Shown in pieces: positions 29,465 to 41,886 of a DNA stretch of 64,000 nt; position 1 is the stretch's first letter; every line of letters starts with the position of its first letter. This stretch comes from Peribolospora baueri (taxonomy: Eukaryota). Under the pieces are notes generated by a model. It worked only from the letters and a program-made list of their open reading frames with translations, was not told the origin of the DNA and ran no database searches. The stretch covers positions 1-64,000 of the forward strand of contig JAMDHS010000024.1 in NCBI GenBank assembly GCA_029717555.1. Direction: 5' to 3'. Both the position numbers and the translations under genes were made by a program.

Positions 29465-30399
29465 ATGGACCGGGTCCCTCCAGGCAGCAAGCGGAAGCGG
29501 AACATCGCCGTCCTCATCTCCGGCTCAGGTGCGTCCTCCTCCTCGAGAGCGTTTCCATGTGGGCCGACCCGAGCGCGTCCTCCTTGAGCACGTTGGGAGG
29601 GCGACAAGCCGGCTTTTTAGGGATACGCTCCAACTGAGACTTTTTCTTTATCCCCCCTCCCCCCCCGGGCCGATCAGGAACAAACCTCCAAGCGATCCTC
29701 GACGCCTGCACGCCCACGGGCCCGCTCTCGGACGCATGCGTCTCCCTCGTGCTCTCTAACCGCAAGGCTGCCTACGGCCTGACGCGCGCGACGTCTCACC
29801 CAGCTTCGCTGGGCGGACCGGTGCGGACAAAAGTGCTAAGCCTCAAGACGTGGCGGGAGAAGAAGGAGAACGAAGGGAAGAGTCGGGAGGACTATGACGA
29901 GGAGGTTGCGAGGGCGGTGTTGGAGCTGGGCGCTGCGAGCGAGGGCGAAGGGAGGAGGGGAGGACCGGATTTGGTCGTTCTTGCCGGATGGATGCACATC
30001 CTCTCCTCGCGCTTTCTCCGCGCTCTCGGCCACGGCGAAGGCGATGAGCGACCAGCGTCGTCGTCGTCCTCTTCCTCCTTCTCGCCGCCGGCTCACCCGA
30101 TCCCCATCATCAACCTCCACCCTGCGCTTCCCGGCGCCTTCGACGGCTCGTCGCATGCCATCCGAGACGCGCACGAAGCGTTCGCGCGCGGCGAGGTGCT
30201 GTCGAAGAAGACGGGCGCGATGGTGCACGAGGTGATCGCGGACGTGGACAAGGGCGCGCCGGTCGTGGTGGAGGAGGTGGAGATGCGGCCTGGCGAGACG
30301 CTCGACGAGCTGGAGGCAAGGATACACCAGGTGGAGCATCGGATCATTGTCGACGGTGCGAGGAAGGTGTTGGACCGGCTCGAGAAGGAGGGGCGATAG
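29465..30399 (+). CDS. ADE8: Phosphoribosylglycinamide formyltransferase
   Basis: IAVLISGSG|TNLQAILD; VLSNRKAAYGL; DLVVLAGWMHIL; INLHPALPGAFDG; MVHEV...VDKG; IHQVEH. Confidence 0.94.
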
Positions 30400-30714: not shown

Positions 30715-31279
30715 TCACACAGAGCCGTAGCCGGCGGCGAGGCCCTCGACCAAGCGCATGATGCCCCAAGCGCCCGGATCGGGGGGTAGAACGACGTCCC
30801 CCCCGTCGCCTTCGCCGCCGCCGCCGTCGCCGACGTACGTCGCCCTGCCGAGTCTGGCCTTCATGCCTCTCGTGCTCTCGGCGCCGCGTCGACAGGCATC
30901 GACGGCTTCGGGGAGGGTGCGCATCTGCTCGCCGATGGCGATGCAGAAGGGAGACAGAGCGTCGACCAGCGTCCGGTCCCCTGGCCGGGCGGGCGTGTGC
31001 TCGGAGAGCGAGCGCAGGGCCACGCGCGATGCTCGGCGCCAGTCCGGTCCCGTTCCCGTTCCGGCCGACTTGGAGGAGGAGGAAGAAGAGAGGAGGCCCT
31101 TGGACATGCCGGCGAGGAAGATGGCATAGATGGCACCGGACGTGCCGCCCATGGTGTTCTCGACGGTGGACGAGATGGACTGGACGAGCTTGGCCGAGTG
31201 GGTGAGTGGGAGAGAGCCGGAGCGGAGGGCGGAAAGGACGGCTTTGCAGCCTGCCGAGAGCGTCTCGCCGCACTGCGAG

Positions 31280-31312
<33 letters not shown>

Positions 31313-33319
31313 GCGACGCGCACAGGTTCTTCGATTGAGCTACGTGAACGACGAGCGAGGGAGAGACGGCACGGCACGGCACGGCACTCACGTCGCCGTC
31401 TCCCACAATCGTATCCATCTCCGTGAGCTCCGGCTCGGCGTCTATGGCACGCTGACAAGCGCCCTCGATAGCCTTGCGGATCCTATCCCGCTCCGCCACG
31501 GGGATCTCTGCGCCCGTGGCGCCGGTCTCGCGCTTGAACTCGGCCACGCCGAGTTTCTGGATGAGGGCGAGCGTTTCTGCGTCTTGCTCCGATCGGGTGC
31601 GGGGGAGGGGAGAGGGGGAGCAATGCGGGTCCGGCCAGGAGGTGCGCGCGCCGGACCACGCCGTCGCTGTCGTGGGGGCGTCGAGGAGGGAGAGGATGGA
31701 CAATTGCGTCGCCGCCGATGCTGGCACGGAGGAGGGCGGAGACGCGCAGAGCGCTTCGGTGGCGGCTACGTTGAGGAGCTGGGGTCGGGCGGGCGATGAA
31801 GAAGAGGAGAGAGACGGGAAAGAGATGGAAAGATGTCAACTTGGGAGCGACGCTGACGGAAGACGAAGGCGCCAAACGAGCAACGCGACGGGGGACGCAC
31901 GCCGATGGAGAAGCCAGGCATGTTGAGACTGGTCATGTACGTAGAAGCGTATATCCTGCTCGGACGGAGTGAGTAGTCGGATTCTGTTCGGGGGAGCGGA
32001 CACGATTGGTGGTGAGCCTGGAAGGTGCCCAAAAGCAAGAGAAGCCAGATCTGCCACGAAAGCAAGAAAAGGCAGAGAAGCGAGAAACAGGACAAACCCA
32101 GCTGTGTGACGACCTCGTCAACAACCGCTCCAAATTCGAGCACGCTCATTCCGCCGAGGTTGTTGATGAACAGGACTGGGCCCTGTAGCCGAGGAGAAAA
32201 AGAAAAAGGAAAAAAAAAAAAAAAAATCAGCGGTCGAGCGATGAACGCCGTCTAGGGACGACGAGAACGCGGACTAACCGTGCCGCCGGTCTGATCGTCG
32301 CACTCGCTTCCAAACGGGACGAAGGCCCTCTGCTTGTCAGCAGGGTCTAGGAGAAGACGTAGGCCGTCCTTGACCACTCCTGCCGTATCGGGTTTCTGAG
32401 GCACCCTGCTGACACCAGGTTCGTTGTGAAGACCCAAGCCGAGCTCGTAGGCGCCTTCTGGCATCGCCTCGCGTTCCTTGTCGCCCTTGGCTCGGCCGGG
32501 GACGTGGCAGTGGTCCAAGCTTGCGGCCACCGTCACGAGGTTCGCCGCGTTGCTCCTTCCGAGGTGGGCGAGCTGGGCGAGGGAGAGCGAGGGGCGGAGA
32601 GAGACGGCGGCAGCGCCGAGGATCTTGCAGACCAAGATGTTGCCAGCGTGGCCGCGCCTTCCTACGAGTCCGATGCGGGAGCGAGGGACAGAGACGTCGT
32701 CGGCGACGTGCACCACCTCGATGGCGTAGCCCTGCGAGCGAGCCGTCTCCGCGGCGAGGCCAAAGTTGAGGCAGTCACCTGCCGAAGGGTGTTTTCCAAC
32801 CAGCGGTGAGGGCCCTCCCGGGTCGGTTCGAAAACGAGGCGATGCGATGGGATGCCACGCGATGCCCACCGGCGGACCCTACTCACCGGTGTAATTATTG
32901 ACAACGAGCACAGCGCCCATCTCGCCAGCGCCGAGCTCAATAGCCGTCCTAACCTGATCAGCCGAGGGGGAAGCAAAGACGTTACCGCTGACGGCGGCGG
33001 CGAGCATGCCGTGTCCGACGTAGCCGGCGTGCGCAGGTTCGTGGCCTGCGCCACCGCCGGAGATGATTGTCACGCCCGGGTGACGGGGGATGGGAGCGGG
33101 AGCGTATGGCGCGGCGAGCGTGGCGGGGAGGTAGACGACCTTGTGTGGCAGGTAGCTGACGGTCAGAGGGCCAAGCGACGGGCGATCGGTCAGAAGGACG
33201 CTCGTCGAGGAGGCGGACGGAGCGACTCACCATCGCAGGGCCGGGTTGAGGGCGATGGTGCCCCTGAGCGACTTTTCGACGAGACCGTCGGGGGACTCGA
33301 AAAAGTGCTTGGTGGCCAT
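30715..33319 (-). CDS. DAK1: ATP-dependent dihydroxyacetone (triose) kinase, fused Dak1+Dak2 domains, multi-exon
   Basis: ISGGGAGHEPAHAGYVG; VFASP; NYTGD; VGRRG; GLHNEPG; GDGDCG; MGGTSG; GDRTLVDAL; GRATY. Confidence 0.94.
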
Positions 33320-34528
33320 GTCTGCGAGAGAGAGAAAGGTGGTGTGGTTTGGGAAGGAGAAGGAAGGCGTTGGTGTTGGGAGTGGAGCGGCTCGTCGTCG
33401 TTGTCTTGTTCTTCTTCTTCTTCTCCCAGGTCGCTCCGCTCCGAACTGATGTTCTCGATGGTGGTGAGCGATGCGGGGAAGGCCGACGGCGACGGCGACG
33501 GGGCTGGTCGCCGAGGGTGCGTGGAGGCGTGCGGAGACGGGGTGCGTGTGTGATTTGGTTGGCTCGCTCGCAGCCGCCGTCGGTGTCTCTGCTCTGCGCG
33601 CGGCTTCTGTGCGAGGTGCGGCCGGCGGCGGCGTGGGTGGAGGAGGCGGAGGTGCGTTTATGGAACGAGATTGCATGGCTTGAGCGGCCGGCGGATGGAT
33701 CACTCGCTCGACCGACACGCGGCGAGCTGGAGGTGAGACAAGAACGAGACGAGGGAGGGTGCGGTGGGAAAGACGCCGCGGTCGGCGACGCTGACACACA
33801 CGGCGGTCATCGGTGGGTCGGCATCTTGCAAGCTCTTGCGACACGGGGCGGCAGACGCGGACGTTGGCTGAGCGTCGGTTGGAGGTGGTCGATGGCGCGG
33901 AGGTTAGTAGCGTCGGTCGAATTCGACCTCGTGGAAGGCGTCGATGCTTCCGTGCGGAGTCCCGCATCGGTGGGCTGGGCTTGGCTTAACTCGGCTCGGC
34001 TTGGCTTGCGAGATGCCGCCGGTTGACGGTGCAAGGATCGGCGCTGGTGAAGATGGATGGATGGCTGGTTGATTGGATGGCTTGCTGGCTTGCTAGTTGC
34101 TAGTCGCTCGTTGCTTGTCGCTCGTCCGCTCGCCGCCGCCGGTTTGAACGCCGACGGTGACCTCGACGATGGCCCGACCGCGTTCGACGCCGTCGCTCCT
34201 CGCTGGCTCCTCACGGACGGCGTATGGGTCGGTGGACGAAGACGGCGGTCGGTGACTAACTACTATGCTGGGCGCTGTCCCCATCGGCCTGTCTCGGCCT
34301 CCACAACCGCTCGCGTGGTGTGGTATGGTGTGGGACATACAGACAGACATATACTACAGACAGGCGCATGGATAGACAGACTGACATACGCATGAACCAC
34401 CGACCCACCCCGACGGCCATCGACCCGACCCCGTCGTCCTCAAAAGGCGACGCCAGCCGTTCTATTCCCTCCCCCTCTACCACCATCCTCGCCCTCTTCC
34501 GCACGGCTGACCCCCACCCCGATCAATC

Positions 34529-36004
34529 ATGTCCGCTCCCAACGCCAACGGCGTCGCCACGCCCGGCTACGGCTTCGCCTCCTCGACCAACGTCGCCTCC
34601 GGCAGCCCCACCGACCCTCTCTACCCCGCCCACCCGCCCCACCTCGCCGCCCAGCTCATCCGCACCGCCCGCGCCCTCGTCGAGCCCCGCGGCAAGGGCA
34701 TCTACGCCACCGACGAGACCCCCGAAGGCATCCAGGCCAGGTTGGCCGCCTTCGATAAGGAGGCCGACGTAGCTCGGTCCGAGGAGGAGAACAAGGCCAG
34801 GAGGAAGGCCTGGAGGGAATGCCTCTATAAGAACTTGCCCACAGACTACATCTCCGGCGTCATCCTCTACTCGGAGACGCTCCACGACTTCAACCTCGCG
34901 CCCCTCCTCACCTCCCGTGGCATCATCCCGGGCGTCCGCGTCGACACCGATGGCTACCCGCTCCCCTTCCCCACCTACACCACCTCGCTCGGCGCAAAGG
35001 CCCCCACCGCGGCCGGCGAGGTGGCCACCCAGGGCCTCGACGACCTCCTCCCCCGGTGCCAAAAGGCCTTCACCGCCGGCGCCAGGTTCACCAAGTGGAG
35101 GGCGCCCTTCCTCGTCGACGACGCTGGCGCCCTGCCGAGCCCCCAGGCCATAGACGCCCAGGCCGAGGGGCTGGCCAGGTTCGCGGCGACCAGCCAGGCC
35201 GCCGGCCTCGTTCCGTGAGTCGCTCCCCGTCCGTCCACGAACAATGTATCAGCCCAAAATGACTCGTTCCTTCCGTTCCGCCCGCCCGCCCCCGCAGCAT
35301 CGTCGAGCCCGACCTCGACTTTTCCGGAGACGCCTCCCTCGCCCGCTCCGTCGAGGCGCACGTAAAGGTCATCAGCGCCATCTACGCCAAGCTCGCCGTG
35401 TACGGGGTCTTGCTCGAGGGTGGGTGTAGAGAGAGCGTGAGAGAAGCGGATGCGATGCGATCGATCGTACCGTGGCAGTCTTGTGTTGTCGTTCGTTAAA
35501 ATCATCGCGACGATCACTCACGCACGCAATTTCTTCCCAACTTGGCGTCCCGCTCGACGGCTTTCTCCTTTGTTATTACACGCTCTCCCCGCCGCAGGCA
35601 CCCTCCTCAAGCCCTCCTTCCCGCAACCAGGCCTCAAACACCCGTCGCGCGCCAACGTGACCCCGGCCGAGATCGGCGCCGCGACCGCCGCCGTGCTTGC
35701 CCGCTCCGTGCCCGTCGCCGTGCCCGGCATCGTCTTCCTCAGCGGAGGCCTTTCGGACGAGCAGAGCGCCCAATTCCTCAACGCCGTCAACAAGGTCCGC
35801 GACGGCAAAACTGGCTCTTCTTCTTCTAACCACGCAGACGGACCGTCATACGGCACCAGGCTACCCCTAATGACCTTCAGCTTTGGACGCGGACTGCAAG
35901 GCGACGCGATGGAGAAGTGGGCCGGTGGAGACGAGAAGGCGGCCCAGGCGGCGTTTGAGAAGAGGGCCAAGGTGTGCTTCGCTGCGGCTAAGGGGGAGCT
36001 TTGA
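34529..36004 (+). CDS. Class I (Schiff-base) fructose-phosphate aldolase family protein, three exons
   Basis: GKGIYATDE; ISGVILYSETL; TQGLDDL; GARFTKWR; LARFAATSQAAGLVP|IVEPD; EGTLLKP (Schiff-base Lys); FLSGG; TFSFGRGLQ. Confidence 0.92.
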
Positions 36005-36080: not shown

Positions 36081-36599
36081 CTTCTGCGGTGGTGCTTGTT
36101 CGTATTTAAGACTCCTCTTCTTGTTCGTATTTGGGACTCCTTGGGACTCCTCCTTCCTCTTCTTCTTCGCGCGCTCTCCCCGCTACCGAACCCGATCAAA
36201 TCGATGCAATCCCCTCGGCCGATCGCCCACCGCTTCGAAAAAAAGGAGAAAAAAAACCACTTCTTTCTTGCTAGGTTGGACGGAAACTGGACTTTGTCCG
36301 AAGCTTTCGGTCGTGTCCTAAGCGCAGGGAGGGGAGAACAAAGCGGTGCAGTCCCGACCGTCCCCGCCTTAGTCGTTCACGGCGGCCGACGGACAAGCGG
36401 ACGGACGGATGGCGGTGCGGGGTTTTTATTTTATTTTTATTTTATTGTTTTTTGGAAACCGACGGTCGGCTTCGATCCATACACGTAGTCGCCTCCGACG
36501 CCCACCGGAACTTGGCCCTCCTTCACTGCCGCCATTTTCGCCTCCCACCTTCCCGGCCTCTAGCCCAGCCCAGCGTCGACATCGACATCGCCTCCACCG

Positions 36600-37504
36600 A
36601 GCGCTGCGCTCTCCGGTCCTTTATCTGATTTCTCATGTTTGGTACCAGAAGCGCATGCAGGACGACAGCGACAGCGACCGACGAGGAAGGCGAAATCAGC
36701 GCAGACGGTCAAGCCAATCGTCCAGATGGGTGGGCGCGTCGTTGTCATGGTAGATGAAGGCGCCTGGCCTGTGCAGTTTGAGATGAAGGAAAGAAAAAAA
36801 GGTACATAAATAAAGAAGGAAGGGCGGAGCGACGTCTTGTCAACGTATTTAAAACCGTCGAGCAAATGTCACGCACCGATGGTCCCTCCCACCTGGTCCA
36901 CTGACACGGTCATTCCGATGGCGAACCGCCCTCTGCGTCTCCGTGAGCGCGTCGTTGCTCGTCCAAGAGACGATGGTGGGAATGGTAGGGTAAGTGCCAA
37001 GGGTGATCAGGAAGGTGGAAAAGTAGCGGACGCGGTTACTGTAGTGCTTGCACCGTGTCAGGACAGCGGCCATTCGACCGAAGACGTCGGTCAAGATGCC
37101 AAAGAGGACTGCGCTGACGGAGACGAAGAGGAGGGTCAAGGTGATGGAGACGATGATGGTGGAGATGGAGCGCTTGTATCGAGCTGAGAGCTCGTCGGTG
37201 ACGAGGTTGACGGCATTGAAGTCGTAGTCGTCTGACGTCCAAGCCGCGCTGGACAGAGAAACATGTTGTTCGCCATCTTCTTTAGCCGAACGCATGAACC
37301 TTTCCGGCGGCGCGACGAAAGGGGCGAGGGGCGAGTCACAGTCCGACCAGAAAGAAGGTCCAGTCCTGCGCGGAGAGGAGGCCGACGACCTTCCAAGGGG
37401 CGGGAGGGCATTACCTTGGGCACCCTCTCGGCGACCAAGACCCCTCGCTCGTCGATCAAGGTATCATTGTTTTCCCAGAGCCTCAAATTTTGCAAGACAC
37501 CCAT
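36600..37504 (-). pseudogene. Degraded chimeric MFS transporter: JEN1-like N-terminus joined to DAL5/TNA1 (ACS)-like C-terminus
   Basis: AWTSDDYDFNAVNL...ITLTLLFVSVSAVLFGILTDVFGR, then RVRYFSTFLITLGTYPTIPTIVSWTSND...TQRAV. Frameshift near 36923 into AIGMTVSVDQVGGTIG, followed by AFIYHDNDAP and a decayed tail. Confidence 0.7.
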
Positions 37505-38322
37505 GCTGGATCGTGCTCCGCGAGAATGAAAAGGACCATCATACTGAAAAAAAAGGGCTCCCGTCGATAAAAAACGTGAAACGAACGGAAACGCGGGACG
37601 CGAAAAAAGGTACATCGACACGACAACGTATCAACACAGCGTTAGTACACATCAACTTATCGTCCAGGCGTTACAGAGCGGAGCGGTCGGCCGTCCCGTC
37701 GTCGACAAACAAGATAAAAGGGAAAAAGGGGGGAAGGAAAAAAGAAAAGAGAAGGGTATGGGGCGGGAGACAAGGGGGTCATCGTTCTTATGGGGCATAT
37801 GCGGTCGGCGACGGCGCGGTGGCGAGGGGAGGGCGCGCAACTGTTCTGACTCAGGGTTAATGAGAAGAGACGGGAGAAAGGCGCACGAACGGACGGGGAA
37901 GTACGGATGGAGGGCCGAGGCAAGCCAAGCCAAGTTAAGTTGAGCAGAGTCGGGAGCCACCGAGAGACGACGAGAGGGAACGGTCTGACGAGCGAGAGCC
38001 GCACGAACCGAGCGGGTCTGGCTTACCACGCCGGGAATCTCTGCTTATCGGGGGTATCGCATTCCACAAGCGGCGGTGTGACGGCGTGAGCGGGTTGGTC
38101 ACTGAGTCACACGTCTTCGCGCTCAGTACTTGGGGCGGCGGCCCCAAGGGCGGTACGAGTCTGCGTGGATGGAAGTAGGGACGAGAGGGAAGGAAAGAGT
38201 AGTCCGGGGAAGGTATGGGGTAAGGCAGGAAGTCTATAATACAGGGGCGACGGACGGACGAGCCGCACCGACTCCCCAATATTTTTTATTTGTTTTTATT
38301 TTTTTTATTTTTCGCTTTTTTT

Positions 38323-39373
38323 TCATACGCCAGCCGGTTTGGCACACTTTCTCTTCTCGATCCTCCCCGTCTTGGGATCTCGCATTTCGCACCAGCTGAT
38401 CGGCTCCATCGGGTTCCCGCCTCCGCCGCCGCCGCCGCTGGCCAACGAGGCGCTGGAGGGATCGGCGAGGGTGAGGAAAGAGGAGGAGACGGCGAAGATG
38501 ACGCCCAGCGAGTTGTGCGCCGTCGAGAGGTAGTACGACCGCGCGTCGCCGAGAGAGATCTGGCCATGGGATGGATGGCCGAGGGGAGCAACACGCGCAC
38601 CATAAATAGTGCCTTGGTGAGCGTTCGCGGCGCTTCCTATGCGACACCTGCACCGAACGGCCACTCACCACACTAGCGCGGACGATGTCTCCCGGCCGAA
38701 AGCACTCCCACACCTTGACCTTGTCCTTCTCCGTCGCGCGGATGTCCTGCACGCGGATCACGCCCTGGAACTCTTCCCGACACGGCCGGCCGTCGACCAC
38801 CTGGATGGAGAGCGTGGCCTGCCGGGATGTTATGCGCGTGATCTTTCCGATGACCTTGAAAAGTCGTACGAGTAAAAAAAAAAATCGGCGGGGGGAGGGG
38901 GGGCAAAACTGTCCATCAGCTCCGACGCCGATCGATGCAGGGAACATTCAAACTCAACGATGTGAGGAATGGGGAAGCCAAGCCTTCAGAAACAAATAGC
39001 GTATAAAATGAAGATTCGCCATCGTCCGCCTCGCGCACGAGTCTGACTCCGACAGCTCCAATATATAGCGGTCATCTCTGGCCAAGCCGAGCGATGGATG
39101 TACACTCGCACACCATCCTCCACCCCAACTCAGCCATGAAAAACAATCCCTACTCACCACGCTCTCAGGCTCCGGAACACCCGCCATCTCCTGTCCGCCC
39201 TTGACGCTCACGACCGCCCCTTGCCTCTCCATCTCTCCCACGAGCGATGAGAGAATGTGCGACCCTCGAGCAAACGTGCCCTCCCCCGGCACAAAGCTCG
39301 GCTGGGACGCTGATTTGGCGAGAGGCAACGGCTGCCCCGGGAGAAGCAGGTTAGACGTATTTGAAGACGACAT
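38323..39373 (-). CDS. CSL4: Exosome cap subunit Csl4, three exons
   Basis: LLLPGQPL...[79 protein letters not shown]. Confidence 0.94.
38981..39083 (-). ncRNA. Probable intronic box C/D snoRNA, U54/SNORD54-like, with two guides antisense to 18S rRNA
   Basis: Lies in the 303-nt CSL4 intron 1 on the same strand. Box C GAGAUGA (39078-39072); UAUUGGAGCUG followed by D'-like CGGA; C'-like ACGAUGG; UUUUAUACGCUAUU; box D CUGA (38989-38986); short GGCC/GGCU terminal stem. Both guides complement the conserved 18S segment CAGCUCCAAUAGCGUAUA. Confidence 0.72.
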
Positions 39374-39619
39374 GGTTGCAAGGCTCTTGCAAGCGCCAAG
39401 CAGGTCAACAACACAAGACCAGACGACGACGACAAGAGCCGCCAGAAGAAAGACCCACCTTGACGGCCGCAGTCGGTAGTCACGTGCCTCAACTACCTAG
39501 GTTGCCGAGGTGGGGGCCCTGCGGAACTTCGGACCGAACCCATGGACCACCATACCCTCCCTTCGTCCCTATAATTTCAAGTCTGGAAACCCCTTCTCTC
39601 CTTCCCCTTAGAGTTTAGG

Positions 39620-41886
39620 ATGTCCAAGATCGTCTCCGACCCTGTCCCGCTCGTATCGTCCCTTGCTTCCATTTACAGCTCGGCGGAGAGCGTGGCGAAG
39701 CAAGGCGAGCGCTGGGACAAGCTCGCTTCCAGCTTCCAGGAGCTTTACGGTACCAAACCGGATTTCGTCGCCAGGGCGCCTGGGAGGGTGAACTTGATTG
39801 GAGAGTGAGTGGAGAGCCGGCCCTGGTTGTGTGGGCGCTCATTGGCGCCTCCTGCTGCTCGATGTTGGGCGAAACGGGGCGTGACTGTGTCGAGCGTTCG
39901 GCGAACTCGATAGCGCGCTGACGGTCGTGGCCCGTACCTATCGCTCAGGCATATCGACTATGTCGGCTTCAGGTAGGTCGAACTGGACCGCCTCGGTGTT
40001 GGACCCGAGTCTCTTCTTGCCGCTCACAATCGTCTCGTCCTGGTCTCGCCTCGCTCAGCGTTTTCCCTGCGGCCATCGAAAAGGACGTGCTGATGGCTGT
40101 GCATGTGAGCCGGCCGACGTCCTACTCCTCAGCCGGCAAGATCCGCTTCCGCCTTTCCAACGTCTCCTCCGCCTTTGCGTCCACCGAGTTCACCTCCTCC
40201 CCTCAGAGTCCGGACGAGGTGACGCTCCACAAGGACGGCGACTCGGTGTGGGCCAACTACTTCAAGGTCGCCCTCAAGGGACTCCACCCTTATCTTCCGC
40301 CCGACCTCCTTTCTCCAGAGCACGCCCCGGCAGAAATTGACGTCCTCGTCGATGGCACCGTCCCGCCGGCCGCCGGTTTGAGCAGCTCCGCAGCCATGAC
40401 CACTTGCAGTTCCATCGTGGTCCTTCAGGCCTTCGGCGCCAGACAGCTCATAGGCCGGTCCCGGATGGCCCAGGTCGCCATCGAAAGCGGTGGGTAACTC
40501 AGACGTTGGTGACACGACTGTGACGGTCCTGTGTTGATGCTCAATTTCCACTTTTGTCCGACTTTGCGCTCGTGCAGAGCGCCTTGTGGGCGTCAACTCT
40601 GGGGGGTGAGCATCGAAGACACCCTCCCCAAGCCAAAGTTCGCCTGGCGCTCACAGCCTTTCCTTTTCCATGTGCGTTCATAGCATGGATCAAGCGGCTT
40701 CCATCTTCTCCGTTCCCGGCCACGCTCTCCACATCAACTTCTCCCCTTCCCTCTCCGCCACTCCGGTCAAGCTCCCTGAGACGGACCCGTCGATCAGCTT
40801 CGTCATCGCCAACACGCTCGTCAAGGCGGACAAGAAGGTCACTGGCCCGAAGAACTACAACCTTCGTGTCGTGGAGACGTGGATCGCCGCTCGCATCTTG
40901 GCCTTGCACCTGGGCCTTGCACAGAAGGGACCGGGAGGGGTCAAAGGCCCGAGGACGCTCCGAGAGGTCGTCAACCGATATTTCGACGCGCACCCGGACG
41001 AGCTCGCCAAGGTTAAAGAGGGCGGCGCACACCCTGCTGGAGACGAGGCGGCCAAGATAAAGTGGCTTGGCGGGGTCCTGGAAGAGGTCATCAAGAAAGA
41101 GGGATACACGAGGGAGGAGGCCGAGAAGGCAACCGGATTCGTGGGCAAGGCGTTTGACGAGGAGTATCTCAGCGCTTTCCCTGGTACGTAGAAGGAGAGC
41201 CAGTTGTCGTGCTGTCTGGTCAACCAACATTTATCGCCCGGCGTTGTCGATGACGAAACTGACGTGACCGACGTCGATTATGACCTCAGTCGTTTACGAC
41301 CGTCTGGCGATCTACAAAAGAGCGACACACGTCCTCTCCGAAGCCGAGCGGGTCTACCTATTCCGCTCCATCGCTACCGCCGCCTCCTCTTCGTCTTCCT
41401 CTTCGTCTTCCTCTTCTTCCTCCCCAGATGTCCTCCACGGTCTGGGTGAGCTGATGAACGCGAGCCAGAAGAGTCTGAAAGAGGACTTTGCGGCGAGCTG
41501 TGTCGAGATCGATGAGCTGTGCGAGATCGCCAGGAGGAACGGCGCCGTGGGCAGCCGGCTGACTGGTGAGTTGGATTTCACCCTGACGTTGCCGTCTTAT
41601 TGCTCTGGTGCTCTCCGCCCTACGACCGCGCCCGTAGTGGAGCGTCGACTGACGGTCTATCTGTCTCACCCTCCTTTCTCCTCGCGCATCTTTCCACCTC
41701 CTCAAAGGCGCAGGCTGGGGCGGATGCACGGTGCACCTGGTCCCGACTCCGCAGGTGCCGTCCTTCATCTCGGCGCTCCGAAAAGACTATTACGCGAAAC
41801 GCTTCCCCAACCTCTCCGAGGAGCAGTTGTGGGACGCACTGTTCGGAACGGGATGCGAGGGAGGCGCTGTGGTTTATGAGGTTTGA
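39620..41886 (+). CDS. GAL1: Galactokinase (GHMP kinase), multi-exon
   Basis: RAPGRVNLIGE|HIDYVG; WANYF; PPAAGLSSSAA; GVNSGG|MDQAAS; YNLRVVE; HVLSEAERV; GSRLTG|AGWGGC; stop TGA at 41884-41886. Confidence 0.93.

Follow-up and report, generated by a model that had tools for sequence, protein, structure and literature searches.

Within the first 64,000 nucleotides of contig JAMDHS010000024.1 of Peribolospora baueri (GCA_029717555.1; the whole stretch is hereafter the window), two genes for enzymes of triose metabolism lie head to head. One encodes a fused kinase of the dihydroxyacetone/triose kinase (DAK) family, and the other encodes a class I aldolase that appears to use dihydroxyacetone phosphate (DHAP). 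A first-pass annotation had placed the DAK start codon at 33319 on the minus strand and the aldolase start codon at 34529 on the plus strand, facing away from each other across roughly 1.2 kb, and this layout was borne out by spliced gene models (Table 1). The DAK model has seven exons (33319-33231, 33155-32887, 32778-32279, 32182-32098, 31983-31901, 31778-31392 and 31272-30715) and encodes 656 amino acids (aa); the aldolase model has three (34529-35214, 35298-35419 and 35598-36004) and encodes 404 aa. Both are open throughout, with GT..CAG boundaries at 8/8 introns. GC content at third codon positions (GC3) reaches 0.88 in the aldolase and 0.80 in DAK, comparable to 0.85 in EF2, and neither gene therefore looks decayed; both are intact.

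Table 1. Features of the window and related loci elsewhere in the genome. Positions without a locus prefix are those of the window.
Feature	Position	Strand	Evidence or remark
DAK, fused DhaK-DhaL ATP-dependent dihydroxyacetone/triose kinase family, basidiomycete clade A	30715..33319	-	Spliced model, tree, motifs
Intergenic spacer, 1,209 bp	33320..34528	.	Candidate bidirectional promoter, from orientation only
Class I (Schiff-base) DHAP aldolase, basidiomycete-specific derived clade	34529..36004	+	Spliced model, PF00274, alignment
Second class I aldolase, canonical	L014:5162-6969 (G000:C405)	minus	7 exons
Second DAK	L017:638-5415 (G000:C230)	plus	Follows directly after an aldo-keto reductase gene, same strand
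Formyltransferase, PF00551, one-carbon enzyme	29500-30399		Left neighbour, tail-to-tail with DAK
Decayed mosaic of two unlinked membrane-protein genes	36473-37536 (and 38177-38249)	opposite orientations	Parts joined without a gap
CSL4 (exosome) and GAL1	38237-39808	divergent pair	Short spacer

Exons 1 and 3 of the aldolase score above the PF00274 cut-off. The orthologue from Ramaria (P0005) has an AlphaFold model with a predicted local distance difference test (pLDDT) score of 92.6, which is an ordinary class I TIM barrel that matches class I aldolases, among them rabbit A, human B and enzymes of Bartonella and plant cytosol, at E ~1e-29, a template-modelling (TM) score of ~0.8 and 33-38% identity; in the ESM Atlas only generic class I aldolase clusters were matched. 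This orthologue barely exceeds the NCBIfam cut-off for class I fructose-1,6-bisphosphate (FBP) aldolases (NF033379; 252.1 vs 250). We searched with aldolase exon 1 and considered the best 120 of 250 matches. Down to the 88th match (E 1e-66 to 1e-36), every named source belongs to Agaricomycotina or Wallemia; plant, protist and bacterial enzymes follow at lower scores. A tree constructed by a quick method from 56 of the 120 listed matches and two models placed the derived aldolases in a separate clade, with 100% support, that tracks the fungal species tree.

Residue numbers are those of human aldolase B (1qo5), transferred through an alignment with the Ramaria orthologue. The window enzyme keeps D62, K189, R191, E232, K274, S318 and R367, equivalent to D33, K146, R148, E187, K229, S271 and R303, and thus holds the Schiff-base Lys229, the catalytic Asp33, Lys146, Arg148 and Glu187, and the P1 site Ser271/Gly272/Arg303. 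Across the clade D33, K146 and S271 are found in 88/88 proteins, R148 and E187 in 87/88, R303 in 85/88 and K229 in 83/88, the remainder being mostly gaps. On the aldehyde side, T35 is kept in the window enzyme, whereas K107, E189 and S/T38 are replaced by R137, D234 and G67. The same changes run through the clade (K107R and E189D each in 87/88, G, A or V at position 38 in 79/88, and mostly Ala at K41), whereas K107, E189 and T38 are present in 32/32 outgroup proteins. The canonical distal site of FBP aldolases (Ser35, Ser/Thr38, Lys107, plus Glu189) is therefore not present in the window enzyme; Ser35, Ser38 and Lys107 we take to be the site for the C6-phosphate (P6). N231S and an N-terminal extension further set the clade apart from class I FBP aldolases. 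K107 and E189 are active-site residues conserved across aldolases A, B and C (PMC9959246), and Ser38, Lys41, Arg42 and Lys107 are located in the aldolase pocket (PMC13081170).

Among 148 further representatives drawn from a 1.84-billion library, K107/E189 occurs in 111 and R107/D189 in 10, eight of which are 44-63% identical to the window aldolase; the other two (33-35% identity) lack the Schiff-base lysine in pairwise alignment, and D189 without R107 was also seen elsewhere among the representatives. The last residue of the window chain corresponds to position 341-342 of 363, and the C-terminal tail with Tyr363 is missing; a Tyr within the last three residues is found in 3/88 clade members and in only 10/32 outgroup proteins. 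Replacement of Tyr363 by an N-terminal Tyr was considered and dropped, the motif [TS]xG[YF]xF being present in only 35/88 proteins and residues 1-20 of the model having a pLDDT of ~48.

The alignments show a paralog with the DHAP half-site intact and the aldehyde half-site remodelled clade-wide, probably as a result of neofunctionalisation. We read it as a DHAP-dependent aldolase whose acceptor site appears to have been rebuilt and then kept under selection. The aldehyde-side changes would fit a substrate other than FBP; a larger residue at position 107 would shrink the space for C5-C6-phosphate. Annotation of the clade as FBP aldolase is doubtful.

For the kinase, an exon-wise profile scan matched Pfam Dak1 and Dak2. 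Along with both domains of a fused DAK, the model holds the His of GHEP (aa 68), the Asp of NYTGD (aa 121), the His of LHNEPG (aa 237) and the DGD ATP motif. As in DhaK structures, aa 237 would be the hemiaminal His and the His/Asp/His set the substrate site. Two DAK searches returned at least 197 different proteins, and in a tree of 89 of 197 listed kinases and two models, all aldolase-linked kinases fell into one supported clade (clade A). Identity between the window DAK and those of Ramaria, Sphaerobolus and a metagenome locus (L022, described below) is only 44-46%. Three orthologues, P0130 (Ramaria), P0253 (Sphaerobolus) and P0140 (Dacryopinax), exceed the TIGR02361 cut-off. These are the kinases that are still aldolase-linked, and directly after GHEP they carry ASVS, ASAA and FAAA, respectively, where the window DAK keeps the usual AHAG.

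To place the pair in the metabolism of its host, we examined related genes in the genome, a draft of 668 contigs. A class II gene of the FBA1 type is present at G000:C561, and the second class I aldolase has canonical residues (S35, S38, K41, R42, K107 and E189). The latter is 40% identical to the window enzyme and 59% identical to a protein of Heliocybe sulcata, its orthologue; since Heliocybe has both this orthologue and the derived form, the two class I paralogs are old. Given the class II FBA1 and the second class I aldolase in the same genome, the window aldolase is accessory and not the sole FBP aldolase, as the first-pass annotation had proposed. Fungal glycolysis is taught as relying on a class II aldolase. 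Three genes of FBP-aldolase families in one genome, two of them class I, are unusual for Dikarya, and the uncharacterised derived clade spans at least 59 genera, annotated everywhere as plain FBP aldolase.

The second DAK is 36% identical to the window DAK and falls outside clade A on a long, unsure branch. Its position next to an aldo-keto reductase gene suggests use of glycerol and dihydroxyacetone (DHA), possibly as a glycerol-DHA-DHAP pair. A search for PfkB kinases gave 6 matches at 4 loci (9 scored candidates). One locus is a ribokinase, and the other three, to judge from their translations, are presumably an adenosine kinase, a MAK32-like protein and a pseudouridine-kinase-like protein. 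No ketohexokinase was found among these 4 loci, although a divergent, intron-split gene could be missed. RpiB gave 0 matches in the draft genome, where the RpiA control was found, and only one triosephosphate isomerase (TPI) locus was found there, with no second copy. Because neither RpiB nor a second TPI was found, the isomerase route of Yarrowia appears absent.

Linkage of the two genes in other species was assessed by matching scaffold lengths and then accession numbers; scaffold length is a proxy, and many assemblies are fragmented. The pair has consecutive accessions in Ramaria rubella (KAF8585100/KAF8585101) and Sphaerobolus stellatus (KIJ53500/KIJ53501), and lies 11 genes apart in Dacryopinax primogenitus and 50 genes apart in Jaapia argillacea. 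Six of 21 metagenome loci carry an aldolase of the derived clade. Two of these (L020 and L021, 1.2-1.6 kb) are too short for neighbours, and in L022 a DAK gene is head-to-head with the aldolase across a spacer of ~240 bp. The L022 kinase is close to that of Ramaria, and we therefore treat these two and Sphaerobolus as a single lineage. Given its recurrence in all three, the adjacency goes beyond chance, and the pairing is ancient. The expectation of conserved synteny across basidiomycetes was accordingly upheld for Ramaria, Sphaerobolus and L022 but failed more broadly: among the matches listed, 46 species have both proteins, and these are on the same scaffold in 4 and on different scaffolds in 42. 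In Gloeophyllum and Heliocybe the aldolase and DAK scaffold lengths differ. No Wallemia DAK was among the matches listed.

In the aldolase tree the branches of the window organism, Dacryopinax and Wallemia lie outside Agaricomycetes. Inheritance of the pair from an early Agaricomycotina ancestor seems the best explanation of this distribution, and the simplest history would be an ancestral linkage that most later mushrooms have lost. A description of the pair or of the aldolase clade was not found in the full-text literature, subscription journals being largely outside that scope; the pair is ancient and undescribed, built from known families but with a distinct aldolase subfamily. No DAK-aldolase fusion was present among the 148 representatives or 18 long proteins scanned. 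Three class I aldolases (P0410, P0420 and P0352) are fused to a PfkB kinase, triosephosphate isomerase and lactonase, respectively, and the aldolase-PfkB fusion may be another ketose-1-phosphate module. The window spacer shares a 12-mer (33939-33950) with the L022 spacer, probably by chance (7/300 shuffles reach its length, and its positions are non-equivalent), and we do not regard it as a regulatory site.

Both genes are also retained together. We sorted 113 named kinases of the at least 197 to clades by best match, leaving out unnamed entries and repeats within a genus; counts are among the matches listed. In Agaricomycotina, a derived aldolase is also listed in 44/55 genera with a clade-A DAK, and in 0/14 genera listed only with another DAK type, namely seven tremellomycetous yeasts together with Mycena, Roridomyces, Schizophyllum, Guyanagaster, Cylindrobasidium, Stygiomarasmius and Sphagnurus. 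No Polyporales name occurs among the aldolase or clade-A DAK matches listed. The Fisher test gives p = 3e-8, a value that overstates the case since the genera are not independent and the counts are limited as stated. On these counts the two orthologues are co-retained even where they are unlinked.

We consider it probable that the two enzymes share a pathway and that FBP is not the preferred substrate of the aldolase. A specific version of this idea, in which DAK supplies the aldolase with L-erythrulose-1-phosphate for reversible cleavage into DHAP and formaldehyde, is our first choice among the readings, but a tentative one that we would put at about one chance in three. Somewhat more doubtful is that the pair constitutes a natural, dedicated L-erythrulose kinase and erythrulose-1-phosphate aldolase (EC 4.1.2.2), serving tetritol catabolism or, in reverse, formaldehyde fixation in mushrooms and their relatives. 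The two genes would probably be transcribed from one bidirectional spacer. DAK would phosphorylate L-erythrulose, derived from erythritol or L-threitol, at C1, like EYK1 of Yarrowia and bacterial LerK, and the aldolase would split the resulting L-erythrulose-1-phosphate, which bears the 3S centre that class I aldolases handle. DHAP would pass to glycolysis and formaldehyde to glutathione-dependent oxidation, with aldolase cleavage replacing the isomerase route. As the reaction is reversible, the two enzymes could also serve to capture formaldehyde with DHAP derived from DHA, and the second DAK could cover glycerol and DHA.

That the kinase makes the substrate of the aldolase is suggested by the lack of a ketohexokinase-like gene among the PfkB loci, and only in this way is a two-gene unit chemically closed. 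The tetrulose was preferred on account of precedents in the DAK family, a side activity of aldolases and the failure to find the Yarrowia isomerases. LerK is reported to make L-erythrulose-1-phosphate, which class I FBP aldolases can also form, by a side activity, out of DHAP and formaldehyde (PMC10733421). EYK1 is described as a putative dihydroxyacetone kinase (PMC5992420) and lies head-to-head with a downstream isomerase gene, with an erythritol-inducible bidirectional promoter (PMC9835291). The erythritol cluster of Yarrowia lipolytica (EYD1, EYK1, EYL1/EYI1, EYL2/EYI2 and EUF1) thus resembles the window in that a DAK-family kinase gene stands head-to-head with that of an enzyme acting later on a ketose phosphate (PMC9835291, PMC5992420). 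It differs in that the partner in the window is a class I aldolase rather than an RpiB- or TPI-type isomerase, and in that the window pair has no adjacent dehydrogenase or regulator. The proposed reaction, DHAP plus formaldehyde to L-erythrulose-1-phosphate, is also that of ketotetrose-phosphate aldolase, or erythrulose-1-phosphate synthase (EC 4.1.2.2), and of the synthetic erythrulose monophosphate (EuMP) cycle. For all enzymes known to catalyse it, this is a side activity (PMC10733421); the fungal enzyme would instead be a dedicated natural one.

Several observations weigh against the erythrulose-1-phosphate proposal. Comparison of DAK motifs does not separate triose from tetrulose (erythrulose) kinases, and no polyol dehydrogenase or regulator adjoins the pair in the window. 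Arg107 is still positively charged and could bind a phosphate or carboxylate, and loss of the tail is weak evidence, as the canonical class I paralog and 22/32 outgroup proteins also have no Tyr among their last three residues. Linkage is lost in the 42 species mentioned above, and three of the four longer fungal metagenome loci (L023, L024 and L028) have no DAK in the 3.5, 10 and 10 kb upstream. Among the matches listed, 11 genera have the kinase without the aldolase and 15 the aldolase without the kinase, and 9/9 Ustilaginomycotina genera have a clade-A DAK and no clade aldolase, from which it follows that the clade-A kinase works without the aldolase. A clade-A enzyme is, moreover, the only DAK listed in many genera, as would be expected of a general triose kinase.

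Among other readings, the next in rank is the one closest to the first-pass annotation, which took the pair for a fructolysis-like ketose-1-phosphate module. In mammals the genes of fructolysis are not known to be clustered. Another kinase would make fructose-1-phosphate, L-sorbose-1-phosphate or D-xylulose-1-phosphate, the aldolase would release DHAP and an aldehyde, and DAK would phosphorylate glyceraldehyde, so that, as in mammalian fructolysis (ketohexokinase, aldolase B and TKFC), a class I aldolase and a DAK-family kinase would work on the same C3 pool. A mono-phosphorylated substrate of this kind is consistent with the missing distal-phosphate residues and C-terminal tail, and the window DAK, with its conserved motifs and orthologues above the TIGR02361 cut-off, could well be an ordinary fused triose kinase. 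Nevertheless, no ketohexokinase was found at the 4 PfkB loci, GAL1 is not a ketose kinase, and aldolase B, a 363-residue chain that does cleave fructose-1-phosphate, keeps K107, E189, R42 and Thr38, the first, second and last of which the fungal clade has changed or mostly lost. We therefore regard this scheme as unlikely, at somewhat over one chance in five. What stands of the module idea in general is the accessory aldolase, the conserved adjacency and active-site changes that would suit a substrate other than FBP; it is the fructolysis version specifically that finds no support.

Ranked just behind, at one chance in five, is a gluconeogenic role, in which DAK would supply DHAP from DHA (itself from glycerol or from formaldehyde fixed in a transketolase-type reaction) and the aldolase would remain an enzyme of FBP or sedoheptulose-1,7-bisphosphate (SBP) that condenses triose phosphates. 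In the xylulose-monophosphate pathway of methylotrophic yeasts, which comprises dihydroxyacetone synthase (DAS), DAK, FBA and fructose-1,6-bisphosphatase (FBPase), DAK likewise precedes a DHAP-using aldolase, there a class II FBP aldolase with a phosphorylated acceptor. No DAS-like gene adjoins the window pair. Arg107 is basic, the Ramaria orthologue passes the class I FBA cut-off, the EF2-like GC3 of the aldolase suggests good expression, and methanol and formaldehyde are made by wood-decay fungi (PMC9699415). However, this would be a third FBP aldolase in the genome, clade-wide replacement of S/T38, K41 and K107 is unexpected under selection for FBP, and no peroxisomal C-terminal signal is evident by eye in either model. 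It is rather unlikely, in our estimate, that the pair is a relic of unrelated metabolic genes that stayed neighbours in slowly rearranging lineages. Head-to-head pairs are known to outlast other neighbours, and both the separation of the genes in most species and the Ustilaginomycotina with a clade-A DAK alone would agree with this. Against it, the other neighbours were not kept, the unlinked genes are co-retained in the proportions given above, and the two enzymes have a C3 unit in common. Least probable of those considered, at around one chance in ten, is an unusual acceptor: Arg107 would bind an aldehyde with a carboxylate or sulfonate, or the aldolase would be the 2-keto-3-deoxy-sugar-acid enzyme of a non-phosphorylative galactose route, with DAK acting on D-glyceraldehyde. 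The near-invariant Arg107/Asp189 looks selected rather than decayed, and an unidentified aldolase and a DAK are named as the last two steps of the fungal galactose route (PMC9781776), but retention of the P1 site (S271, G272 and R303) and the DHAP catalytic set favours DHAP over a pyruvate donor.

The ancient link to DAK narrows the search for the aldolase substrate to a handful of ketose-1-phosphates. According to a preprint, it is a long-standing hypothesis, with no gene assigned, that fungi split an erythrulose phosphate into DHAP and formaldehyde (bioRxiv 10.64898/2026.07.28.741190). Should the erythrulose-1-phosphate proposal hold, the derived aldolase would supply the gene for this step of fungal erythritol catabolism, as well as a candidate natural enzyme for the key step in the formaldehyde-fixing EuMP cycle, which now depends on side activities (PMC10733421). 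Mushrooms and their relatives would then have an aldolase route for tetritols, or a means of fixing formaldehyde from lignin and pectin demethylation onto DHAP.

Finally, we examined the genomic surroundings of the pair. A decayed transporter and GAL1 had been noted within 6 kb as possible parts of a larger cluster; both are present, but the larger cluster was rejected given the mosaic origin of the transporter and the failure of window reading frames other than DAK and the aldolase to find a match in L022, L023, L024 or L028. The flanks are not kept in L022, where a gene with an OGFr domain lies downstream and the sequence stops 300 bp beyond the DAK. Positions 37060-37536 share 91% identity with the beginning of an intact JEN1-like gene at G000:C646 (best match TIGR00891, a carboxylate transporter), and positions 36473-37059 align the other way round, at 85% identity, with another gene, at G000:C640, presumably a major facilitator superfamily (MFS) transporter of the DAL5/TNA1 type. 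The mosaic looks like a recently captured copy of gene fragments, not an old cluster member. GAL1 makes an aldose-1-phosphate, which an aldolase cannot cleave, and it is not accompanied by GAL7 or GAL10 in the stretch examined, from 24 to 44 kb of the window. The formyltransferase we take to be ADE8. GAL1, CSL4, EF2 and the formyltransferase are ordinary neighbours of the pair.

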